Positions 5,105 to 39,257 are shown, numbered from the stretch's first letter. The stretch is 64,000 bases of DNA from Verrucomicrobiota bacterium (GCA_049510395.1 JBEKYY010000016.1:3095-67094); one strand, 5' to 3'. The notes: generated from the sequence alone by a model not told the origin. A program made the numbers and translations.

Positions 5105-7471
5105 ATGGGTTTTGATGCCAATCAACCTTCGCACCGTCAATTTCGAGAAACATTGAAGCAACGCACTGTGCCTGTGGTGGTTTGGGCTGGCGGTGGATTG
5201 AGTGCGCCTTCTGGATTGCCAAATTGGATTCAACTTCAAACGTTTTTGACGAACCGAGCGGTTGACAAGCAAGGAAGAGTAGACACAGCAGCTAGCGAAA
5301 TAATTCAGGCACATCTCAAATTAGCTCATAGCGAAAAATCGGCTTGGAAGAAATTTCAGCACCTTAAAAACGCACTTGGGAACACAGATTACACAAGTGC
5401 AATTCACGAAGCCTTTCAAGACGCCGGCAAAGCGACAATTCCGAACTTATATCTTCAATTGTGGGAACTTGGAATCAATGGTTTTTTTACTTTGAACATC
5501 GACCGTCTTGCCTCACGTGCGTTTAGCACGAGGACCCCGGGCGGTGTTTTAAGGGAATTTGAGGGGGGTAACTCACAAAGGCATGCAGACGTTTTTCTTT
5601 CTGGTCAAAAGTTTGTAGTTAATCTTCATGGAAGTATTGACGACGCGCAAAGTTGGATATTCACTGAGTCGGACTTCGAAACGTTAAGCAAAAATCCAGG
5701 TTATGATAAACTTGTGAGTGCTTGTTTTACGTCCCGTATAGTTCTGTTTGTCGGCATTTCGGCGGATGATCAAGCGGCGGGTGGCCATTTGGAAAAATTT
5801 AGGAAGCTTGGAATAAATTTAACCAATCACTTCTGGCTTACACATAAAAATGACGCGGGGACAGTTCGTTGGGCGGGAGACGTGGGGTTGAATTTAATTT
5901 TTTACGAGGCCCGAGGCGAAGATCATTCAGATATCAACGGTTTTGTTAAAGATCTCTCGCTATACATTCCGCAGGACCAAGTGCCACCACCAGTAGAACC
6001 TCCCTCGAAGAGGGAAGGCAGCTCAATTCTTCCTGCTGACGAACTTGAGCGACAACCAGCGAATAAAATTCGAATGGCTCTAAACAACGAGGCTAAAAGA
6101 ATTCTTTCATCAAACAGTGTGGCAAAAATCACGGAATATGATAAGTTTTTGTCAGAGTATGGCGAAGCCGTTTACCGTGCTTGGTCAATGAGCGTCACAC
6201 CGCAAAAAAACCTTTTTTTCAATTATTCCCTTAAACGCGTAATAGCGAAAGGTGCATTCGGTCAGGTTTTTGAAGCGATTGCGCAGGACGGAAAACACGT
6301 TGCCATTAAAATATTGCATGGCGATGTTCGCGAAGAGCCGGGTATGTTGATTAGCTTTCGTCGTGGTGTTCAGTCGATGCGAATACTTTCCGACCGTCAT
6401 GTTCCGGGAATGGTGCCATACCTTGAAGCTTGGGAGATTCCAACAAGTTCTGTTATGGAATTGGTCGATGGCCCCAACCTTGAAGATGCGGTAAGCGCGA
6501 ATTACGCTAATGATTGGGAAACACGCATGCGAATTGCTGCTGAATTGACAAAAATCATTCGCACGGCTCATAGCGTTCCAGAGCGTGTTCTTCATCGAGA
6601 CATTCGTCCTGCGAACATCATGTTAAAGGGTTATTACGACCAGACAGTCCCTTGGAAAGTAGTTGTATTGGATTTTGACCTTTCATGGCATCGCGATGCA
6701 GCAGAGGGAAGTTTAAATTTAGCGACCTCCTCCAATGGCTATTTATCGCCTGAATAAATTGATCCTTCGCGAAAGAAGTTAACTCGTAATGCGCTTGTCG
6801 ATTCGTATGGAATTGGGATGACGGTTTTTTTCCTGATTACAGGGAAACACCCTAAAGTGGGACAACATCTCTACGCCAACTGGGGTAAATTGCTCGCTGA
6901 AAAAGTTTGTTCAATTAGGTGTGTATTTTGGAATTCCTTACCATGTAGAATGGCTAGATTAATAGATTGGTCGACAAAAGATAACCAATCTGAACGTTGG
7001 GATGTGACAAGAATACATGGTGAATTGATTAGGCTTTCAGAGACTCAAAAGGGAGCGAGTTACGTTACATCGGCCGAAATGTTTGCTGAAGAAATTGTGG
7101 CTCGCTGTTCCGAGTTAGTTTCAATTTATACGTGGGACGACCAAAAGCTCTCTGCGTTGTCCGAATTGAGATCAGGTTTTACAATCCGTGTGGTTGGTGA
7201 TGAGTCTGAAAAGAGAGTTGAGGTTTATATCGACTGGATGCAGACAGGTGAGCGCAAATATGAAAACGTAAGAAAGTATATCGATACTGCCGCAGAAAAA
7301 AGTTGTTCGCGTCTCAAGAAAGGAGCGTGGAAAATATCACGTCGAGGGATTGCTCTTGGTGAGTGCCACATTGAGGCAGAAATAACTATTCCCGAATTGC
7401 GAAAGCCGGGACTTTTGGATGCTGCAGCGACTAGTCTAAACGAATCCATCTCCGCACTGCATTTTGGTTAA
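5105..7471 (+). pseudogene. SIR2-like (SIR2_2-type) domain fused to a Ser/Thr protein kinase domain and an unknown C-terminal domain; interrupted by one in-frame TAA at 6755..6757
   Basis: ORFs 5105..6757 and 6818..7471 are in the same frame. Reading through gives ...GYLSPE*IDPSRKKLTRNALVDSYGIGMTVFFLITGKHP, so the stop falls between kinase subdomain VIII (SPE=APE) and IX (DxxxxG). SIR2 blocks are VVWAGGGLSAPSGLPNW, FTLNIDRL, NLHGS and LFVGISADD. Kinase blocks are AKGAFGQV, VAIKIL, HRDIRPANIM and LDFDLS. G+C is markedly lower than in the flanking genes. Confidence 0.7.
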
Positions 7472-29647: not shown

Positions 29648-29932
29648 ACCAGTCATGAAAATCGTAAAGCAATCCATGACTTGCTTCAGTTAACAACGTC
29701 CAATTGAGTAGATCAGCCAACATCTGATTTTCACTCATTCCCCTCGCATGACCCAGCCTTTGGTGGGTTCTCACCAAGCAAAGAGACAAGCGGAAGCAAC
29801 CCAATCATCAATTTCCCAAGATTTGAAACCGATGATAACAACCAAACCAAGCGCCGCTGTCATTAGGTGCATATTTTTCGTGACATTTCCGGCTAAATTT
29901 GTTCTTATTATCAATTGCAGCTGGAATTAATC

Positions 29933-32900
29933 ATGCGCTTCGTAAGCAGAACATTGCCGATGCTCGTTGGTGCGGGTAAAACAAGTGACGCCAGCAAACG
30001 ATTCAGTGTCGGAGCTTTAGTAGTTCTGTTTCTCTTTTCCGCGACTCCGGTCCGGTCAGCAGAAAGACAATTGCTTCGCAATCACATTCCTGCAGTCACT
30101 TCGAAATTGCGGCCGGTGGACCGACTCGCAAGCTCGAAGCGTTTAAATCTTGTATTTGCGCTGCCGCTGCGCAACCAAAAGGCACTCACCAATCTGCTCC
30201 AGCAACTCTACGATCCGACGAGTTCCAATTACCGACAGTACCTGACGCCGCAGCAGTTTGCCGAGAGGTTTGGACCGACCGAACAAGACTATCGCGCTGT
30301 CATGGATTTTGTGAGAGCGCAGGGTTTGACTGTGACCGGAACACATCCCAACCGCACATTGTTGGACGTGAGCGGAACGGTTGCGGAAATCGAAAGTGCA
30401 TTTCATGTCAACCTGGTGGTTTACAATCACCCGATCGAAGCCCGGACGTTTTATGCACCGGATGTTGAACCTTCGATCGACCTGACGGTTCAAGCATTGG
30501 AGGTGGTGGGCCTCGATGATTATGTTATGCCGCGTCCGATGTACCACCAAATGGCAACTCCCCTTGTGCAAGCCAATGAGACGAAGCCCAACGTCGGCTC
30601 AGGACCTGGCGGGACATTTATGGGCAACGATTTCCGGGCAGCCTACATTCCGGGCATTGCGCTCACTGGCTCAGGGCAGAAGGTTGGCCTGTTAGAATTT
30701 GATGGATACTTTACCAATGATCCAGTCCAATATGCGATCCAAGCCGGTCTGACGAACATTCTGACGATCACCAATGTGCTGGTGGACGGATTCGACGGCA
30801 CCCCTGGTTCCTACAATGTTGAGGTTGCCTTGGATATCGAAATGGTCATGTCCATGGCTCCGGGAGCTCAGATTATCGTCTATGAAGGTTCCATCACCAC
30901 ACCAACAATTATCATAGATCTCTTGAACCGTATGGCGACCGATAATCTGGCCCAGCAATTGAGCGCTTCCTGGACGTATCATACGGGGCCGGCGATGGAG
31001 CAGGTTTTTCAGCAAATGGCAGGGCAAGGACAATCGTTTTTTAATTGTTCCGGAGATCATGATGCTTACAGCGGAACAGTAACCACGCCGGCGGATGACC
31101 CGTATATCACAATCGTAGGGGGGACGACTTTGACGACCAGCGGGCCTGGAAGCAACTGGGTGTCAGAAACCTGCTGGAACTGGGGCAACGACATTGGAAG
31201 TGGCGGTGGAATCAGTACAAGCTGGGCAATTCCGTCATGGCAACAAGGCATTAATATGTCGAGCAATAATGGTTCAACGACCATGCGGAACCTCCCTGAC
31301 GTTGCGATGGTGGCGGACAGGGTTTATGCCATCGCCGACAACGGCGCGCCGCAGTATCTGGGCGGCACAAGCATTTCGACTCCGCTCTGGGCAGCGTTTA
31401 CGGCGTTGGTCAATGAGAAGGCGGGGCTTCAAGGCAAGCAACCGGTCGGTTTTGTCAATTATGCCCTCTACGCCATTGGCCAAGGAACGAATTACAACAC
31501 GGCATTCCACGACATTACGACCGGCAACAACACAAACAGCAACAGTCCAAACAACTTTTTCGCCGTGCCAGGCTACGACCTTTGCACAGGTTGGGGAACC
31601 CCGACACCAAACTTGATTGATGCCATGCTCAACGTCCAGTTCGTCATTCCAAATGGCTGGACACTAACGAGCCTGCCAAATGAAGATTGGTCTGGCGTCG
31701 CCTCTTCAGCAGACGGCACTAAGTTGGTTGCAGTAGACTTGTCTGGAGGACATCAGATCTATGTCTCGTCTTCATCAGGAGTGATTTGGCGGCCCTATGG
31801 GCCGGCAGCAAGCTGGCGCGGAATTGCCTCCTCCGCCGACGGAACTAAATTGGCCGCGGCACCGTGGTATGGCTCCATTTACATCTCGACAGATTCCGGT
31901 GTCACATGGACAGCGACGACTTCACCTTCCTATTCGTGGCGTTCGATGGCCTCTTCGGCCGATGGAACCAAATTGGCTGCGGGGGCATTCTGGGAAGGGG
32001 TTTTTGAAGTTTCGACCAATTCAGGTGCAACTTGGATGGCATCCAGCATGTCTGGCAGTATAAATTGGATGCCAGTCGCTTGGTCAGCAGACGGCGGCGT
32101 GTTGGTGGCTGCTTGTGGTAGTACGGTTTATGTATCAACCAATTCAGGCGCCACAAGCAGGTCAACTACCTTGCCGGGAATGAATTGTACATCTGTGGCT
32201 TCGGCGGCGGATGGCTCCAAACTGTTTGCTGCTGGAGGTTCCATTTACATATCCACAAACCTGGGGGCGAGTTGGACAATTTCCGGGCCCGCTTCCGGGG
32301 CGGGATTAGTGGCGTGTTCCGGAGATGGCTACAGACTTGCAGCCGTATCGGACCAAGTTTACATTTCAGACGATGGAGGGACAACTTGGACGTGTGTCGG
32401 ACCACGAACGCCCCCCACATATATGAGTTGGTCGACGATCGCCTGTTCTGCTGATGGAAGCAGATTAATCGCGGCAATAGAGGATTATTATGATGGGCCG
32501 GTTTACACAGGCGTGTTTCCCCGAAGTGGACCAATCATCACGACGCCCCCCGCCAATCAGGCGGCCGTCGTCGGCAGCGACGCGGTGTTCAGTGTGGTTG
32601 CCATTGGCCCTCCGCCTTTGACTTATCAGTGGAGTTATAACGGAACAAATATTTTGGGTGCCACCAACAGTTGGTTAATCTTGACCAATGTGCAATTCAG
32701 CCAAGCCGGCTATTACGGTGTGCAAGTGAATGACGTTTATGGTTCACGTTTCAGTCCCAACGTGGCGCTGACGGTTGTTCCACCGCCGGTAACAATTCTG
32801 GTCCAGCCGACAAATCAAACAGCGGTTCTGGGCACCGCAGTGCGTTTCACCGTTACCGCGCTCGGCACGCCGCCGTTGAGTTACCAATGGTTGTTCAACG

Positions 32901-35458
32901 GCACGAACATGGCTGGGGCGACAAATAGTGAGCTGATGCTTTTCAATGTCCAACCGACCAACGCCGGCACGTACGCCGTGACGGTAGCCAATGCGTATGG
33001 CCCAATCACCAGTTCCAATGCGGTATTGACGTTGATTTCACCAACGCCGTGTGCCGAGCCGCCCTCCGGGTTGATCAGTTGGTGGCAGGCGGAAGGCAAT
33101 GCCATCGATAGAATGGGAACCATCAACGGCTCGTTGGTCGGCAACACAACTTACGGTCCGGGTTTTATAGGTCAGTGCTTTGTTCTCGACGGCGACGGCG
33201 ATGCCATCACGCTGGGCAATCTCTCGAGCTTTGGGTTGCAGGTATTCACGGTTGAGATGTGGATCAAACGAACCAGCACAACGCTCAGTACTCAAAACGG
33301 AAGCAAGGCCTATCTGTTCGCCTTCGGTGGCGGCGAAGACGGATTTGGTCTATTTAACGATGGCACTCTATTCTTTCAAAGTGGCTGCTGTTACGGAACC
33401 GGGGCACCTGTCAACGATACGAATTGGCATCATGTGGCGGTGACCGCGACTGGCACTGGTGACACCATCTATATCGATGGAACAGTCAGGGGAGGTTCGA
33501 TGTGGCCGAAATCGTTCTCCTTAACCACCGTGGCCATCGGTGCGCGAGGGGACGCTACGGCCAACAGTTTTTACGGAGCGATTGACGAACCTTCGCTGTA
33601 CAATCGCGTGCTTTCCGACACTGAAATTCAATCCATTTACAATGCCGGTGTCTATGGCAAGTGTTTGTTGCCGGCTCCACCCTTTATTCTGTCCCAGCCG
33701 ACGAACCAGGCGGTGGAGGTGGGAAGCACGGCGACCTTTACGGTTGCTGTCGGAGGCATGCGGAAGTCGTTGAGTTACCAGTGGCAATTCAATGGAACAA
33801 ACATCGTTGGACAGACAAACGCCTCGCTGGTTTTGACCAACGTCCAATTTCCGGAAGCAGGCACTTACGCGGTGCTGCTAACCAACGCGTTTGGATCAAC
33901 AACCAGTTCCAGCGCAATACTAACCGTCTACGGTCTGCCGCCCGCCATAATCTCCCAGCCGACGAACCAGACGGTGGAGGGGGGCAGCACGGCGACGTTC
34001 GCAGTGGTCGCTGGCGGCACACATCCGTTAAGTTATCAGTGGAGTTGTAATGGCACGCACCTGACTGGGGCGACGAACGCCTCGCTGGTTCTAACCAACG
34101 TCCAACGGAGTCAAGCAGGCACTTACGCGGTGCTGGTGACCAACGCTTTTGGATCAACAACCAGTTCCAGCGCAATACTAACCGTCTACGGTCTGCTGCC
34201 CGCCATCATCTCCCAGCCGACGAACCAGACGGTGGAGGTGGGGAGCACGGTGACGTTCGCGGTCTTGGCTGGCGGCACACGTCCGTTAAGTTATCAGTGG
34301 AGTTGTAATGGTACGAACCTGACTGAGGCGACGGACGCCTCGCTGGTTCTGACTAACGTTCAACTGAGTCAAGAAGGCACTTACGTGGTGCTGGTGACCA
34401 ACGCTTTTGGTTCGATCCTCAGCTCTAATGCAGTGCTGACTGTCTCTCCCGGATATGTTAACACCGTGAACATTGGCACCTCAGCAACCGTGCGAACCAA
34501 TGGGTCGTCTGTTGGTCGAGGCACTGGACTGCTGGCTTCAAAAGATGTTGCGCCCAGAGGGTACCGGTTTGCACTCCTCACAAGTGCCACCGTAACACAA
34601 AGTGAACCAGCCAATATTCTTGATGCCCAGTGGCGATTCACCGGGGTTACGATGACCAACTTTATCTATTTCGGTTCCGTCAATGGTGGTGCTCATGTTC
34701 CGGCCAATTATTGGCATTACGGCCAGAGCAATGCGTTTGTCGTGGTAGGTTGGTCGGCCAACCTTGGAAGCAACTGGCTTACGATATCGAATGATGTGGC
34801 GACTGGTGCTTGGAATACCAGTGATGGCTGCAATGGTTATTTTGGCGTGTCGCCTATTGGTTATGGGATAGCTGGCCCACCCCCTCCGGAAATCGCATTC
34901 AGGATTTGGGGTAACACCAGTACTTCGGGAGTGCCGATAAATGTCCAATGGGATTTGTATGCCGTGGGAACACGACCTGTTATCTCTTCCCACCCAACGA
35001 ATCAAACGGTGGTGGTGGGAGGTGCGGCGACATTCACGGTGGTGGCTGGCGGCATGCTGCCATTGAGTTATCAGTGGCAATTTAACGGTGCCGACTTGTG
35101 CAACGACACAAACTTCTTTCTGACTTTCACTCATGCTCAGTCCACTAACGCCGGCTTTTATCAAGTTGTCGTGACCAACGTTTACGGGTCGGTGACGAGT
35201 TCAGTCGCCACGCTCAGCATTCTGGGGGTGCCGGTGTCTTTTAGCACGAGTGGAGAAGACATCCGATACATCAACGGCCAATTCCTCATCAAACTGATCG
35301 ACTTAACCGGCCAAGGACCGTTGGTAATGGAAACATCGACCAATCTGACAGATTGGTCCCCGATCTTCACCAACCCGGCCGCGTTTGGCGAAATCAAGTT
35401 CGCTGATCCTGTGGCGACTAACAACCCGCAACGATTTTATCGGGCGCTCGTTCGGTGA
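29933..35458 (+). CDS. giant secreted multidomain protein: pro-kumamolisin activation domain + S53 sedolisin peptidase + BNR/Asp-box beta-propeller + Ig-like repeats + LamG/ConA-like domain + C-terminal W...RFYR module
   Basis: Signal peptide from the ATG at 29933. YLTPQQFAERFGPTEQDY is the propeptide. LGGTSISTPLWAAF is the S53 Ser motif. The SSADGTKLxA unit recurs seven times, and five Asp boxes are present (STDSGVTW, STNSGATW, SDDGGTTW...). Six Ig-like units share the LSYQW..NGT...AGTYAV pattern. The LamG block is WHHVAVTATG...IDEPSLYNRVLSDTEI. Confidence 0.85.
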   Translation: MRFVSRTLPMLVGAGKTSDASKRFSVGALVVLFLFSATPVRSAERQLLRNHIPAVTSKLRPVDRLASSKRLNLVFALPLRNQKALTNLLQQLYDPTSSNYRQYLTPQQFAERFGPTEQDYRAVMDFVRAQGLTVTGTHPNRTLLDVSGTVAEIESAFHVNLVVYNHPIEARTFYAPDVEPSIDLTVQALEVVGLDDYVMPRPMYHQMATPLVQANETKPNVGSGPGGTFMGNDFRAAYIPGIALTGSGQKVGLLEFDGYFTNDPVQYAIQAGLTNILTITNVLVDGFDGTPGSYNVEVALDIEMVMSMAPGAQIIVYEGSITTPTIIIDLLNRMATDNLAQQLSASWTYHTGPAMEQVFQQMAGQGQSFFNCSGDHDAYSGTVTTPADDPYITIVGGTTLTTSGPGSNWVSETCWNWGNDIGSGGGISTSWAIPSWQQGINMSSNNGSTTMRNLPDVAMVADRVYAIADNGAPQYLGGTSISTPLWAAFTALVNEKAGLQGKQPVGFVNYALYAIGQGTNYNTAFHDITTGNNTNSNSPNNFFAVPGYDLCTGWGTPTPNLIDAMLNVQFVIPNGWTLTSLPNEDWSGVASSADGTKLVAVDLSGGHQIYVSSSSGVIWRPYGPAASWRGIASSADGTKLAAAPWYGSIYISTDSGVTWTATTSPSYSWRSMASSADGTKLAAGAFWEGVFEVSTNSGATWMASSMSGSINWMPVAWSADGGVLVAACGSTVYVSTNSGATSRSTTLPGMNCTSVASAADGSKLFAAGGSIYISTNLGASWTISGPASGAGLVACSGDGYRLAAVSDQVYISDDGGTTWTCVGPRTPPTYMSWSTIACSADGSRLIAAIEDYYDGPVYTGVFPRSGPIITTPPANQAAVVGSDAVFSVVAIGPPPLTYQWSYNGTNILGATNSWLILTNVQFSQAGYYGVQVNDVYGSRFSPNVALTVVPPPVTILVQPTNQTAVLGTAVRFTVTALGTPPLSYQWLFNGTNMAGATNSELMLFNVQPTNAGTYAVTVANAYGPITSSNAVLTLISPTPCAEPPSGLISWWQAEGNAIDRMGTINGSLVGNTTYGPGFIGQCFVLDGDGDAITLGNLSSFGLQVFTVEMWIKRTSTTLSTQNGSKAYLFAFGGGEDGFGLFNDGTLFFQSGCCYGTGAPVNDTNWHHVAVTATGTGDTIYIDGTVRGGSMWPKSFSLTTVAIGARGDATANSFYGAIDEPSLYNRVLSDTEIQSIYNAGVYGKCLLPAPPFILSQPTNQAVEVGSTATFTVAVGGMRKSLSYQWQFNGTNIVGQTNASLVLTNVQFPEAGTYAVLLTNAFGSTTSSSAILTVYGLPPAIISQPTNQTVEGGSTATFAVVAGGTHPLSYQWSCNGTHLTGATNASLVLTNVQRSQAGTYAVLVTNAFGSTTSSSAILTVYGLLPAIISQPTNQTVEVGSTVTFAVLAGGTRPLSYQWSCNGTNLTEATDASLVLTNVQLSQEGTYVVLVTNAFGSILSSNAVLTVSPGYVNTVNIGTSATVRTNGSSVGRGTGLLASKDVAPRGYRFALLTSATVTQSEPANILDAQWRFTGVTMTNFIYFGSVNGGAHVPANYWHYGQSNAFVVVGWSANLGSNWLTISNDVATGAWNTSDGCNGYFGVSPIGYGIAGPPPPEIAFRIWGNTSTSGVPINVQWDLYAVGTRPVISSHPTNQTVVVGGAATFTVVAGGMLPLSYQWQFNGADLCNDTNFFLTFTHAQSTNAGFYQVVVTNVYGSVTSSVATLSILGVPVSFSTSGEDIRYINGQFLIKLIDLTGQGPLVMETSTNLTDWSPIFTNPAAFGEIKFADPVATNNPQRFYRALVR
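33675..34450 (+). repeat. three tandem ~258-261-bp coding repeats (Ig-like units) inside the giant gene
   Basis: The units begin near 33675, 33938 and 34195 (..ISQPTNQTVE.GSTATFAV.AGGT.PLSYQWSCNGT...). Units 2 and 3 are nearly identical at the nucleotide level. Confidence 0.85.
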
Positions 35459-35662
35459 AATGGCAGCAGGTTGTAGCTGTAATCCGAGGAGCTTTTCTTG
35501 CAACGATTCAGCAACGAACCATACCAAAGCGCGAAGTGTAGGAAATTTCCCCACGCACAGTGGGCATTGTTAGCTTTCGGAAGGCGGAGTTCCACGCGCC
35601 CTAAATTTTCGGGTCTCGCGGAGTTCGACCCTCCGACAGATTTTTGAGTCGTGGCAGCCAGT

Positions 35663-35915
35663 TTATTCGCGGCCGGCTGCGGCGATGAACGGCTTCAATT
35701 CCTTCATCAGCTTCGCGAACATGTCAAACGACATCTGTTGCGCGCCGTCGCTCCAGGCTTCCGCCGGGTTGGGATGCACCTCGATCAACAACGCGTCCGC
35801 GCCCATGGCCACCGCGCCCTTGCACATCGCCGCCACCAGGTCCGCGCGCCCGGCGCCCTGGCTCGGGTCAACCACGATCGGGCAGTGCGATTCGCGCTTG
35901 ATGATGGGAATGGCG
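35663..35915 (-). pseudogene. 3' fragment of a DAHP synthase gene (duplicate of the aroF C-terminus)
   Basis: It encodes ...DPSQGAGRADLVAAMCKGAVAMGADALLIEVHPNPAEAWSDGAQQMSFDMFAKLMKELKPFIAAAGRE*. This is near-identical to the last ~80 aa of the 36682..37701 product, and the whole 5' part is missing. Confidence 0.85.
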
Positions 35916-36086
35916 GACCAGGCGGGCGTAGCCTTGCGCGGCGGGCATCATTGCACCCAACCGCTCATGCGCCGGCTGGGCGTGGAATCCACCGCCCGCG
36001 CCAGTTTTTATTTCTATAACACCAAAGCCGAAGTGGACCGGTTCGTGGAAGTCATCCGCGAGATTCAAAAATTCTTCGGCGGATGA
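35912..36086 (+). pseudogene. 3' fragment of a sufS gene (duplicate of the SufS C-terminus)
   Basis: It encodes DQAGVALRGGHHCTQPLMRRLGVESTARASFYFYNTKAEVDRFVEVIREIQKFFGG*. Compare the SufS end ...HHCTQPLMHRLGVESTARASFYFYNTKAEVDRFVEVVKEIQKFFAQ*. It abuts the aroF fragment head to head. Confidence 0.85.
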
Positions 36087-36681
36087 TTAACTGCGAACGG
36101 TGGGGCGCCCGTCCTCCGCAGTAGTTTTGCTACGGAGGGTGGAAGGCTACCGACGAGCCGAAACAGTTCTTGCCGCAAAAAAGCGCAAAAGACGCAAAAC
36201 AGAGTGGTACAGGCACCCTGCCTGTCTGTGCGGAAGGGAAAAAATTGATAGTGAAGCGACCCGCCGAACCGACAGATGACTTTCAAACCCAATTTGACAA
36301 TAACGCACTGAGATATCCGTGTTCATCAGCGGTCTCTTCCGATTACACTACCACCTCAGCCAGCCGGTTTTGATTTCGGTGACCAACGATTTTCCCGGTC
36401 GCGCTCGGCGGCGCGGTCTTCCAACAATTCCTGCACGGCGGATTTCTCGCCAGGCTTGGATTTGAAGATACCGCAATATGAGCGAATCCGCTTGTGGATT
36501 TCTGTGCCTGTTATTTTTTTACGGCTGGCCATGCCAAGATTTTGCCACAGCAAGCCTGTTTTGGGAGAAAAAAGTCACGGCGCGCAAGGGACTGCGCGCC
36601 CTACCTTTCGTGTGGTTGGTGTATTTCGTAGTTAAAAATCCGTGTTCATCCGTGTTCATCCGTGGCTAAAAATCTTTGCGT

Positions 36682-37701
36682 TCATTCCCGCCCGGCCGCG
36701 GCGATGAAGGGCTTCAATTCCTTCATCAGCTTCGCGAACATGTCGAACGATACTTGTTGCGCGCCGTCGCTCCAGGCTTCCGCCGGGTTGGGATGCACCT
36801 CGATCAACAACGCGTCCGCGCCCATGGCCACCGCGCCCTTGCACATCGCTGTCACCAAGTCCGCGCGCCCGGCGCCCTGGCTCGGGTCAATCACGATCGG
36901 ACAGTGCGATTCGCGCTTGATGATGGGGATGGCCGAAAGGTCCAGCGTGTTGCGCGTGTAGGTTTCGAACGTGCGGATGCCGCGTTCGCAGAACAGGAGA
37001 TTCGGATTTTCATTGGCGAGCACATATTCGCCCGCGAGCAGCCATTCCTCGATTCTCATGGAGAGTCCGCGCTTGAGCAGAACCGGCTTACCGGTCCGGG
37101 CGGCGGCGATGAGGAGCTGGAAGTTCTGTGAATTGCGCGCGCCGATCTGGATGATGTCCGTGTATTCGGCCACCAGTTCGGCGTGGTTTTCAGAAAGCAA
37201 TTCGGTGATGACGGCCAGCCCGGTGAGGCGCCGCGCCTTGTCGAGCAGCTTCAGGCCTTTCTCGCCCAGTCCCTGGAATTCGTACGGGGACGTGCGCGGC
37301 TTGAACGCCCCACCGCGCAGGAAGGTCGCCCCGGCGGCCTTCACCGCCTCGGCGGTCCGGAGCAGCTGTTTCTCGCTTTCGACCGAGCATGGCCCGGCCA
37401 TGACGTGGAATGATTTGCCGCCGATGACGTGTTCGCGGACGCGGATGACAGAATTGGCCGGGTGCGCCTCGCGGCTGACGAGTTTGTAACGTTTCTGGAT
37501 GGGCGTGACGCTTTCGACCGCGCCCGGGAATTGCGAGACCAGCGTTTCGAGATTGGCATGGGTGAGTTCGTCGCCGATGGCGCCGATGACGGTGCGCGCC
37601 ACGCCGCGCATGACGTGGGGGATGTAGCCGAGTCGGCGGATTTCCTTGAGGACGGAGCGCTCCTCCTTCCTCGAAATCCGGGGTTTAAGCACGATGATCA
37701 T
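36682..37701 (-). CDS. aroF: 3-deoxy-7-phosphoheptulonate (DAHP) synthase, type I-beta with N-terminal ferredoxin-like regulatory domain
   Basis: MIIVLKP... N-domain, then AGPCSVES, LRGGAFKPRTSPY.FQGLG, IQIGARN and IVIDPSQG. Confidence 0.92.
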   Translation of the reverse strand: MIIVLKPRISRKEERSVLKEIRRLGYIPHVMRGVARTVIGAIGDELTHANLETLVSQFPGAVESVTPIQKRYKLVSREAHPANSVIRVREHVIGGKSFHVMAGPCSVESEKQLLRTAEAVKAAGATFLRGGAFKPRTSPYEFQGLGEKGLKLLDKARRLTGLAVITELLSENHAELVAEYTDIIQIGARNSQNFQLLIAAARTGKPVLLKRGLSMRIEEWLLAGEYVLANENPNLLFCERGIRTFETYTRNTLDLSAIPIIKRESHCPIVIDPSQGAGRADLVTAMCKGAVAMGADALLIEVHPNPAEAWSDGAQQVSFDMFAKLMKELKPFIAAAGRE

Positions 37702-37730
37702 AGGTTTTTTACGGTTTGACCGAAGGTTGC

Positions 37731-37770
37731 CAAAACAAAAACGCCGCAGGCGTCCTGGCGACCTGCGGCG
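37731..37770 (-). terminator. intrinsic terminator/attenuator hairpin in the aroF leader
   Basis: The minus-strand RNA is CGCCGCAGG-UCGCCAGGACG-CCUGCGGCG followed by UUUUUGUUUU. It ends about 30 nt before the aroF ATG (37701). Confidence 0.65.
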
Positions 37771-37788
37771 ATTTGTTTGGTTAAAGTT

Positions 37789-37884
37789 CTATCGCAGCCG
37801 CAAGTGCGCGCTTACCGCCCAAAACCAATAAAAGAAATACTGGCTGCTGGCTGCGTTGTTCACTTGCTTGCTGCTGCTGTTCAC
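37789..37884 (-). CDS. candidate aroF leader peptide rich in aromatic codons
   Basis: My own minus-strand translation: GTG-NSSSKQVNNAASSQYFFYWFWAVSAHLRLR-TAG. Seven consecutive Tyr/Phe/Trp codons are present (tat ttc ttt tat tgg ttt tgg). The stop lies 18 nt before the terminator stem. The start codon is uncertain (GTG at 37884 or the in-frame GTG at 37863). Confidence 0.6.
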   Translation of the reverse strand: MNSSSKQVNNAASSQYFFYWFWAVSAHLRLR

Positions 37885-37890
37885 GAGACT

Positions 37891-37918
37891 AGGATAACAG
37901 GACTGGCCCCGCTGTCAA
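37891..37918 (-). promoter_or_regulatory. candidate sigma70-type promoter for the aroF leader
   Basis: On the minus strand: TTGACA (37918..37913), a 16-nt spacer, then TATCCT (37896..37891). Confidence 0.35.
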
Positions 37919-37972
37919 GCATGGAGGCGGGGCCTGCAGGTGCATCAAGCGCATCCCAATTTTTGCGTGTCT

Positions 37973-38124
37973 CTGATTAGCACCCGGCTTCAGCCGGGTG
38001 AAATCCAGTTATCATTTGGATTAAACCCGTTTCAACGGGTTTTCCCTCGCGCACAAAAGCCGTTGAAACGGCTTCCTGATGCTCTGCGACCGTCATCACC
38101 GGGCTGAAGCCCGGTGCTAATGAG
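37973..38124 (-). repeat. family A MITE-like element, copy 2 (opposite orientation to copy 1)
   Basis: ctgattagcacccggcttcagccgggtga ... aaacccgtttcaacgggttt ... aagccgttgaaacggctt ... tcaccgggctgaagcccggtgctaatgag. Confidence 0.75.
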
Positions 38125-38147
38125 AATGCTCCACTTTCCGAACAAAA

Positions 38148-39257
38148 TCAGACATTGAACTTGAACAGCAGCACGTCGCCGTCCTTGACGACGTAATCGC
38201 GGCCTTCGATGCGGTAGTGGCCGGTTTCGCGGGCGTGGCCCACCGAGCCGCTCTTCACCAGATCATCCCAGTTCACCGTCTCCGCCTTGATGAACCCGCG
38301 CTCGAAGTCGGTGTGAATGGTGCCGGCGGCTTTCACCGCCGTGTCGCCGGCGTGAATCGTCCATGCCCGGACCTCTTTTTCGTTGAAGGTGAAAAACGTC
38401 CGCAGGCCGAGCACATGATATGCGGCGCGAATGAGCTGGCCGGCGCCGGATTCGGCCACGCCGAGTTCCTGCAAAAATTCCTTCGCTTCGTCCGGCGATA
38501 AATCCACCAGGTCGCTTTCAATCTGCGCGCTGACGACGACGGCTTCGCAGGCGAGATGCGTCTTCACGTGGTCGCGCACCTTTTGGACGAACGGATTTTT
38601 ATCGGCGGTGGCAAGGTCATTTTCCTTGACGTTGCAGACGAAGACGGTTGGCTTGTCGGTCAGCAGGAAAAAACTGCGCTGGATGATTTTCTCATCCGGC
38701 GACATCGGCAGCGCAAACGTATTGGCCGGTTTGCCCGTGTCCAGATGGGCGTCAATCTTTTCCAGCAGGTGGTCCTCCAGCAACGCGTGTTTGTCGCCGC
38801 GTTTCACGTCCTTGGCGATTTTTTCCCGCCGCTTTTTGACCGCTTCGATGTCCGCCAGCACCAGTTCGGTGGTGACGATTTCAATGTCGCGCACCGGGTC
38901 CACGCTGCCCGTGACGTGGACGATGTCAGGATCCTCGAAGCAGCGGACGACATGCAGGATGGCGTCCACTTCGCGGATGTGGCTTAAAAATTTATTACCC
39001 AGGCCTTCGCCGTGCGACGAGCCTTTCACGAGACCGGCGATGTCCACGAATTCAATCGTCGTGGGAATGAGGGTCTGGGTTTTCGCAATCTTTGCGAGCG
39101 GTTCGAGCCGCGGCTCCGGCACGGAGACGACCCCGAGGTTCGGCTCGATGGTGCAAAAGGGGTAATTCTCCGCCGGCGCCTTGTGCGAGCGGGTGACGGC
39201 ATTGAACAACGTGGATTTCCCGACGTTGGGCAGACCGACGATTCCAGCTTTTAACAT
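38148..39257 (-). CDS. ychF: redox-regulated ATPase YchF
   Basis: MLKAGIVGLPNVGKSTLFNA..., DIAGLVKGSSHGEGLGN, and a C-terminal TGS-like domain ...DGDVLLFKFNV. Confidence 0.95.
   Translation of the reverse strand: MLKAGIVGLPNVGKSTLFNAVTRSHKAPAENYPFCTIEPNLGVVSVPEPRLEPLAKIAKTQTLIPTTIEFVDIAGLVKGSSHGEGLGNKFLSHIREVDAILHVVRCFEDPDIVHVTGSVDPVRDIEIVTTELVLADIEAVKKRREKIAKDVKRGDKHALLEDHLLEKIDAHLDTGKPANTFALPMSPDEKIIQRSFFLLTDKPTVFVCNVKENDLATADKNPFVQKVRDHVKTHLACEAVVVSAQIESDLVDLSPDEAKEFLQELGVAESGAGQLIRAAYHVLGLRTFFTFNEKEVRAWTIHAGDTAVKAAGTIHTDFERGFIKAETVNWDDLVKSGSVGHARETGHYRIEGRDYVVKDGDVLLFKFNV

Follow-up and report, generated by a model that had tools for sequence, protein, structure and literature searches.

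A candidate leader-peptide attenuator of the DAHP synthase gene aroF in Verrucomicrobiota

Introduction

Do Verrucomicrobiota use a translated leader that reads the supply of aromatic amino acids to switch the gene for the committed enzyme of the pathway that makes them? The question is raised by a 64,000-nucleotide (nt) stretch of DNA from a Verrucomicrobiota bacterium (GCA_049510395.1 JBEKYY010000016.1:3095-67094), hereafter the window. On its minus strand, a promoter-like pair, a small open reading frame (ORF) with seven consecutive Tyr, Phe and Trp codons and an intrinsic terminator lie directly upstream of aroF, the gene for 3-deoxy-D-arabino-heptulosonate 7-phosphate (DAHP) synthase. An earlier note on this DNA had proposed that these elements form an attenuator sensing all three aromatic amino acids. 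The computational analysis of the locus and of its relatives described here indicates that the element is very probably a ribosome-mediated (leader-peptide) transcription attenuator of aroF. It belongs to a known mechanism class and constitutes a lineage-specific new case, not a new mechanism.

Gene regulation in the Verrucomicrobiota is almost uncharacterised. The attenuator reading provides a testable proposal for how these abundant, mostly uncultured soil and freshwater bacteria may control the committed step towards their aromatic amino acids.

Results

Organization of the aroF leader

All elements named in the earlier note are present on the minus strand where it had placed them (Table 1). 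The promoter pair TTGACA-16-TATCCT (37918..37891) is the sole sigma-70-like match in 3.5 kb. The leader ORF reads GTG at 37884, located 6 nt past the -10 box, continues as NSSSKQVNNAASSQ-YFFYWFW-AVSAHLRLR and closes with a TAG ending at 37789. The terminator is composed of an 11-bp GC hairpin and a U-tract (37770..37732), begins 18 nt past the leader stop and has a hairpin energy of -20.1 kcal/mol. The U-tract ends 30 nt before the aroF ATG in the window and about 30-40 nt before it overall. The promoter scan over 3.5 kb found no promoter-like site between the U-tract and aroF.

Only 6 nt separate the end of the -10 box from the start codon, which leaves no space for a Shine-Dalgarno site. Judged from this promoter geometry, the leader mRNA is probably leaderless or nearly so.

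Table 1. Features of the aroF locus in the window, with coordinates counted from its first nucleotide
Feature	Coordinates	Strand	Sequence or basis
-35 hexamer TTGACA	37913..37918	minus	Promoter scan; TTGAC[G/T/A/C] kept in 64/64 parsed loci
Extended -10 element TGtTATCCT	37891..37899	minus	TATCCT, 16 nt from TTGACA
Leader ORF, 31 codons + TAG	37884..37789	minus	(GTG)NSSSKQVNNAASSQYFFYWFWAVSAHLRLR
Segment 1, distal, GCAGCAGCAAG..GUG, leader nt 8-24	37861..37877	minus	5' strand of the P1 hairpin in minimum free energy folds
Segment 1, proximal, CGCAGCC, leader nt 30-36	37849..37855	minus	Exact complement of GGCUGCG
Candidate regulatory codon run UAU UUC UUU UAU UGG UUU UGG (YFFYWFW)	37819..37839	minus	Sequence
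Segment 2, CACUUGCGGCUGCG, final five codons of the leader ORF	37793..37806	minus	Partner of segment 1 or of the terminator 5' arm
Segment 3, terminator 5' arm CGCCGCAGG	37762..37770	minus	Core CCGCAGG identical in 63/64 aligned loci
Segment 4, terminator 3' arm CCUGCGGCG	37742..37750	minus	Paired in 100% of alignment cells
U-tract UUUUUGUUUU	37732..37741	minus	T-run after the hairpin in all parsed loci
aroF, type I-beta DAHP synthase, 339 residues	36682..37701 (ATG 37701)	minus	NF006421, E = 9e-136, residues 1-338

No second run of seven F, Y and W codons turns up when the 64-kb window is translated in all six frames. First-order Markov shuffles of the window gave a run of 7 in 0/200 cases and a run of at least 6 in 3/200. 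The shuffles and the six-frame uniqueness bear out the view of the earlier note that such a run is unlikely by chance. Other F/Y/W runs in the window (at 5479, 5984, 49595 and other positions) lie inside long ORFs or off-frame, and were rejected as leaders. A pattern scan of the 64-kb window found no second arrangement of a short ORF with a codon run and a terminator.

The hairpin pattern CCGCAGG-N(3-16)-CCTGCGG occurs once in the window, against 0 expected. It is not a generic repeated terminator of the genome, being present in one copy per locus and one in the window. An Rfam cmscan of 36500..39000 at E <= 10 returned no leader, T-box or riboswitch family over 37732..37884. The sole Rfam match overlapping this interval is the small RNA (sRNA) RcsR1, at chance level (E = 5).

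Conservation in related genomes

Relatives were scanned with one genome per species, and the best 80 of 555, with AroF 80-96% identical, were retained. With the window, 81 upstream regions were compared, of which 64 were parsed automatically and about 10 more by eye. The related loci are nearly all Verrucomicrobiota metagenome-assembled genomes (Limisphaerales, Pedosphaera-like and Verrucomicrobiia), and a few carry other, possibly mislabelled names.

The leader arrangement is found upstream of aroF in about 74/81 regions. The earlier note had proposed conservation in related genomes as a check, and the small ORF, the aromatic cluster and the terminator are indeed kept upstream of aroF orthologues. 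The 64 regions that parse fully contain a promoter, a start codon 5-9 nt past the -10 box, an ORF of 23-32 codons, a terminator and a T-run. About 10 leader-bearing loci were missed by the parser, owing to a truncated contig or an atypical terminator or promoter. Seven of the 81 regions are without a leader (L035, L044, L046, L052, L054, L058 and L071).

The promoter is highly regular among the 64 parsed loci. The spacer is 16 nt long in 60 of them, the TG extension is present in 57, and the -10 element fits TAnnnT. The start codon lies 5-9 nt from the -10 element in every one of the 64 loci, and in 43 the distance is exactly 6 nt. The window and the 63 other loci share a uniform promoter grammar, TTGAC[G/T/A/C], 16 nt and TGnTAnnnT, with a -10 interior that tolerates G/C. 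The start codon occupies a fixed position and is GTG in 52 loci and ATG in 12.

The stop codon is followed after 18-35 nt by the CCGCAGG-loop-CCUGCGG core. This stem core (37744-37768 in the window) is found at equivalent positions in 66/80 related loci and is nearly invariant. The exceptions in the 64-row alignment are L078, with an A-U pair compensated to G-C, and L065, with one G-U pair. Such conservation exceeds the needs of one helix and may reflect a network of 1:2, 2:3 and 3:4 pairings or sequence-specific recognition.

Reading of the leader ORF as codons

Frame 0 is open up to a stop located 18-35 nt before the terminator in 64/64 loci. The corresponding counts are 0/62 for frame +1 and 0/58 for frame +2. 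The leader peptide is otherwise poorly conserved: its identity to that of the window falls to 16-26% in distant loci, where AroF is still at least 80% identical.

The aromatic residues are concentrated at a defined distance from the stop codon. Positions -16 to -10 are 53-89% F/Y/W, and the flanking positions are at most 25% aromatic. The cluster contains F, Y and W together in 55/64 loci. The aromatic codons of the 64 loci comprise 135 UUU, 37 UUC, 76 UAU, 32 UAC and 72 UGG. Since UUU/UUC, UAU/UAC and UGG are all used, the aromatic signal does not merely reflect U-richness. F, Y and W account for 23% of residues in frame and 7.5% in the other two frames. The open frame, the interchange of GTG and ATG and the aromatic cluster indicate that selection acts on translation, not solely on RNA. 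The peptide ends in an L-R-L-R tail. Of the 64 loci, 52 have L at -2, 48 have L at -4, 44 have R at -1 and 46 have R at -3.

Folding of the leader RNA

The full leader RNA of the window has a folding energy of -67.6 kcal/mol (z = -3.1 versus shuffles) and folds into a hairpin, designated P1, and the terminator. P1 is formed between codons 3-8 (GCAGCAGCAAG..GUG) and the final codons of the ORF (CAC..CUUGCGGCUGC), with the aromatic run in its apical part. The ribosome-free RNA forms the terminator in 61/64 loci, and a partner located upstream usually engages segment 2.

The stalled state was modelled by removing the RNA 5' of the front edge of the ribosome, with the terminator 3' arm not yet made. 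In the window, this RNA forms the antiterminator pairing ACUUGCGGC/GCCGCAGGU, a helix of 9 bp with an energy of -13.5 kcal/mol, versus -20.1 kcal/mol for the terminator. In 49/64 loci, the 3' end of the ORF pairs with six or more of the seven core bases in the terminator arm. The partner lies at -13 to -7 from the stop codon in close relatives and at -18 to -12 (CCUGCG) in distant loci.

Antiterminator strength was taken as the loss of folding energy on barring the terminator-arm core from pairing. The mean stabilisation is -10.9 kcal/mol for a stalled ribosome with the 5' region unavailable, and -7.1 kcal/mol for a single stalled ribosome with pairs across it allowed. It amounts to -4.5 kcal/mol with the ribosome at the stop codon and -4.6 kcal/mol with no ribosome. 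The stalled state with the 5' region unavailable is stronger than the at-stop state in 61/64 loci. A structure rivalling the terminator, which the earlier note had predicted, is thus found by folding across the 64 loci, and its availability is set by the position of the ribosome.

The competing helices are also better preserved than shifted controls. Pairing holds in 90.6% of alignment cells for the antiterminator core (31-51% in slid controls) and in 81.6% for the P1 base core GCAGC/GCUGC (27-58% in slid controls). The 1:2 hairpin is found in nearly all loci, and about half of them show the classical geometry, with its 5' strand no more than 18 nt from the aromatic run. In the subclade of the window, the main strand is 25-37 nt upstream, beyond what one ribosome covers.

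The spacing of these elements matches the size of a ribosome. From the last aromatic codon it is 17 nt to the start of segment 2 and 30 nt to the stop codon. A ribosome protects about 12 nt downstream of its A site, so the start of segment 2 would lie just outside the region protected by a stalled ribosome. A ribosome at the stop codon covers segment 2.

The pairings named in the earlier note hold in part. CUUGCGGC and GCCGCAGG are complementary over 8 bp including one G-U pair, and CGCAGCC and GGCUGCG are exact complements. The role given to CGCAGCC as the 1:2 strand does not stand for the main helix, since the window fold uses codons 3-8 instead, but it does for some ribosome-masked states. 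CGCAGCC pairs in the fold when the ribosome masks the last aromatic codon, and a ribosome that stalls on the first aromatic codons would cover it.

Proposed mechanism of attenuation

In the attenuator model, transcription would begin at or within 1-3 nt of the leader GTG, and the ribosome would load at the 5' end of a leaderless mRNA. When charged tRNA-Phe, tRNA-Tyr and tRNA-Trp are ample, the ribosome would reach the UAG and cover segment 2. The 3:4 terminator and its U-tract would then form, and transcription would end about 30 nt before aroF. When any of the three charged tRNAs is scarce, the ribosome would stall on YFFYWFW, 30-48 nt upstream of the stop codon. Segment 2 would be left free to pair with the newly made 5' arm of the terminator, the terminator would be blocked and the polymerase would enter aroF. 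When the leader is not translated, P1 would join the 5' part of the ORF to segment 2 and the terminator would form, so that the default state would be off.

The transcription start, the translation of the ORF, the stalling and the read-through are predicted steps of this model. Sensing of Phe, Tyr and Trp alike is suggested by the codon content of the run. Three traits distinguish the element: a long mixed run of Phe, Tyr and Trp codons, an ORF placed at the 5' end of the transcript and mostly starting with GUG, and, in the subclade of the window, a 5'-proximal strand that acts against the antiterminator in the predicted folds.

Several observations weigh against the attenuator model. Covariation is almost nil. 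The terminator arms pair in every alignment cell (100%), but five of their eight pairs never vary. No double changes occur in the antiterminator core, and neither this core nor the P1 base nor the terminator scores above the shuffle controls. Because the helices keep their sequence and show essentially no compensatory changes, the structural support comes from conserved complementarity and energetics. RNAalifold on the 64-sequence alignment recovers the terminator alone, and MAFFT aligns the variable-register extensions of P1 and the antiterminator poorly. When cognate duplexes were compared with non-cognate ones, the 2:3 pairing gave a weak p = 0.05, driven by divergent loci with a differing helix extension. 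The 1:2 pairing showed a modest advantage (p = 1.4e-4), and the sequences compared are not independent.

The geometry of P1 and the energetics pose further difficulties. The P1 5' strand (nt 8-24) is located 22-38 nt upstream of the run in the subclade of the window and falls outside the roughly 30-nt footprint of one stalled ribosome. If pairs across the ribosome are allowed, the equilibrium fold of the window is still 1:2 plus terminator. For the model to work here, there would have to be steric exclusion, a second ribosome (queued or initiating) or a kinetic preference. As in other attenuators, the terminator (-20.1 kcal/mol) is more stable than the antiterminator (-13.5 kcal/mol), so the outcome would have to be kinetic. 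Finally, leaderless initiation on GUG is inefficient in E. coli.

One way around the position of P1 is that relief in this subclade needs a second ribosome, initiating or queued, over codons 3-8 of the leaderless, mostly GUG-initiated mRNA. We regard this variant as unlikely. If true, such a two-ribosome switch would respond jointly to how far three aromatic tRNAs are charged and to how often leaderless initiation occurs, a behaviour not described for classical attenuators.

Alternative explanations

The strong structure of the leader (z = -3.1) would also be expected if the ORF were untranslated and the RNA bound a protein or small ligand that decides termination, in the manner of a riboswitch or a TRAP-like or T-box-like element. 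The nucleotides of the terminator core and segment 2 are conserved far beyond the peptide, and the invariance of CCGCAGG/CCUGCGG exceeds what pairing alone needs, both of which suit a ligand-binding RNA. Such an RNA does not account for constraints that are specific to one frame, namely the open frame, the fixed stop position and the interchange of GTG and ATG. Nor does it account for the synonymous use of UUU/UUC and UAU/UAC, or for UGG, a codon that is not rich in U. The Rfam search at E <= 10 gave no leader, T-box or riboswitch family, and sequence conservation is low in the 5' half of the leader. NAG repeats of the TRAP-like kind were considered in this Ser/Gln-rich half as well and ruled out, as the region is not conserved in other loci. 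Control by a ligand-binding RNA is thus considered very improbable.

We give equally little credence to the view that the small ORF and terminator constitute an independent unit, encoding a small protein or an sRNA, with a terminator that acts constitutively but incompletely and with aroF expressed by leaky read-through or from its own promoter and without any amino-acid sensing. A strong terminator (-20 kcal/mol plus U-tract) and equilibrium folds that always favour it fit this explanation. However, the roughly 30-40 nt between the U-tract and the aroF ATG contain no promoter-like site, and the peptide is not kept as a protein, with only the aromatic cluster and the RNA-constrained C terminus persisting. 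The linkage to aroF is also constant across loci, and in the metagenomic locus L129, described below, a DAHP synthase of an unrelated class has an analogous leader with aromatic codons in front of it. A nascent peptide acting as the sensor by TnaC-like arrest, with its ..HLRLR-stop tail stalling the ribosome at the stop codon on a free amino acid and so preventing termination, appears the most doubtful explanation of all. The C-terminal L-R-L-R is indeed the most conserved part of the peptide. Its codons are at the same time the nucleotides of segment 2 (CUUGCGGCUGCG), which pair with segment 1 and with the terminator arm, so constraints on the RNA account for the conservation of LRLR. Distant loci change the tail to ..NLRxGL and retain CCUGCG. 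Moreover, a ribosome held at the stop codon would mask the antiterminator and favour termination.

aroF and its genomic neighbourhood

AroF aligns over its full length with the Thermotoga maritima DAH7PS structures 1RZM/3PG9 (E = 6e-100), the N-terminal regulatory domain included. The gene upstream of the leader is ychF, which ends at 38148. Nested inverted repeats of about 155 nt (37972-38125) occupy the region between the ychF stop codon and the leader promoter, with outer arms of 30 nt that are 90% complementary and inner arms of 20 nt. The hairpins with T-runs in this element probably terminate ychF. Its sole Rfam match is a chance-level rsmX (E = 0.36).

The final ~255 nt of aroF (36680-36936) are duplicated with 94% identity at 35661-35917, 1019 bp downstream. 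The copy abuts the last ~56 codons of a SufS-like cysteine desulfurase (35918-36086, plus strand). In several relatives (e.g. L003, L006 and L015), a matching sufS 3' end is convergent downstream of aroF. The window thus contains a rearrangement or a duplication of local extent, or else an assembly artefact. About 200 nt from the duplicated aroF fragment lies the end of an ORF of 1847 residues (29915-35458, plus strand), with a peptidase-like region at the N terminus and, after it, many BNR/sialidase-like and Ig-like repeats.

Discussion

Implications for gene regulation in Verrucomicrobiota

The attenuator reading implies a layered control of aromatic amino acid synthesis, in which a transcriptional switch would be placed atop an enzyme with a Thermotoga-type N-terminal regulatory domain. 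The conserved promoter (TTGACn, 16 nt, TGnTAnnnT) and an ORF start that appears to coincide with the transcription start provide indirect clues to the promoter grammar of the phylum and to leaderless translation. The uniformity of the promoter may help to define Limisphaerales promoters and leaderless genes. The element would also be a useful seed for the annotation of an RNA or leader family.

Comparison with known attenuators

Ribosome-mediated attenuation is a textbook class of regulation exemplified by trpL and pheL. The aroF leader shares with the E. coli trpL-trpEDCBA and pheL-pheA systems a leader ORF, a run of cognate codons, predicted 1:2, 2:3 and 3:4 hairpins, and a terminator before the first structural gene. 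As in those systems, the distance from the regulatory codons to segment 2 fits a ribosome footprint. The E. coli leaders control terminal branches and respond to a single amino acid each, whereas the leader described here precedes the common first step. The trpL and pheL ORFs carry a Shine-Dalgarno site, and their segment 1 contains the regulatory codons. In contrast, the ORF here is located at the predicted 5' end of the transcript, and the main segment 1 of the window lies 22-38 nt upstream of the run.

Multivalent leaders also exist in E. coli. thrL contains Thr and Ile codons, and ilvL of ilvGMEDA contains Leu, Val and Ile codons. These systems are experimentally established, and in them a shortage of any one encoded amino acid can relieve termination. 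The aroF leader resembles them in mixing codons for several products of the regulated genes. It differs in the amino acids and pathway concerned, and its multivalence is suggested by codon content.

The closest functional parallel by description is aroR-aroF of Corynebacterium glutamicum, in which a leader peptide with Phe-Tyr-Phe attenuates aroF (Neshat et al. 2014, cited through PMC11802643 and PMC4046766). Read-through is described to increase there under Phe limitation, with no effect of Tyr despite the Tyr codon (PMC11802643). Both systems place a short mixed-aromatic leader directly before a DAHP synthase gene. Stalling raises transcription in C. glutamicum and would do so here. However, C. 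glutamicum belongs to the Actinomycetota, and its leader has three regulatory codons and no Trp, whereas the Verrucomicrobiota leaders have a run of 4-7 that includes Trp. Only Phe limitation acted there, and the resemblance is functional. AroF of the window is a type I-beta enzyme with a Thermotoga-like N-terminal regulatory domain. There is no sign of common ancestry with C. glutamicum aroR, so convergence is likely.

Attenuators have also been predicted for Vibrio aroA(I-alpha)-tyrA and Thermus thermophilus aroA(I-beta)-tyrA (PMC1173090, Table 7), and one has been noted ahead of Shewanella aroF (PMC2659441). These cases likewise have a terminator/antiterminator leader before a DAHP synthase gene, and the Thermus enzyme is also of type I-beta. 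They belong to other lineages and are database predictions without comparative detail. The earlier note had considered a mixed-aromatic leader controlling a DAHP synthase undescribed in this lineage. As a statement about novelty this was too strong, given that such attenuators have been described in Corynebacterium and predicted elsewhere. For the phylum itself, a full-text literature search found no paper on terminator-type leader-peptide attenuation in Verrucomicrobia.

The same design occurs further afield. A metagenome scan with the terminator pattern yielded 120 stretches, mostly unrelated terminators of other organisms, so the hairpin sequence alone is not diagnostic outside the clade. 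AroF lies downstream of 14 of the matches, and further leader-bearing AroF loci were recovered down to 73% AroF identity. The locus L129 (contig Ga0272443_10000299, 5156-6422) contains the leader MLLPAVTNAFCFGYYFYFSRGAPVVR, a hairpin with a U-tract, a Shine-Dalgarno site and a type I-alpha (aroFGH) DAHP synthase. Its leader folds with z = -4.9, and CCUGUGG near the end of the ORF can pair with the terminator arm CCGCAGG. A leader peptide similar to that of L129 is present in L102. L129 differs from the Verrucomicrobiota loci in its enzyme class, its Shine-Dalgarno site, its origin from an unrelated low-GC organism and a leader without a Trp codon, and represents an independent invention. Leader-peptide attenuation of DAHP synthase thus appears to have arisen repeatedly, in the Verrucomicrobiota, in Corynebacterium and in an unrelated metagenomic lineage with another enzyme class. 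Control of DAHP synthase by an aromatic leader is probably a recurrent, convergent design.

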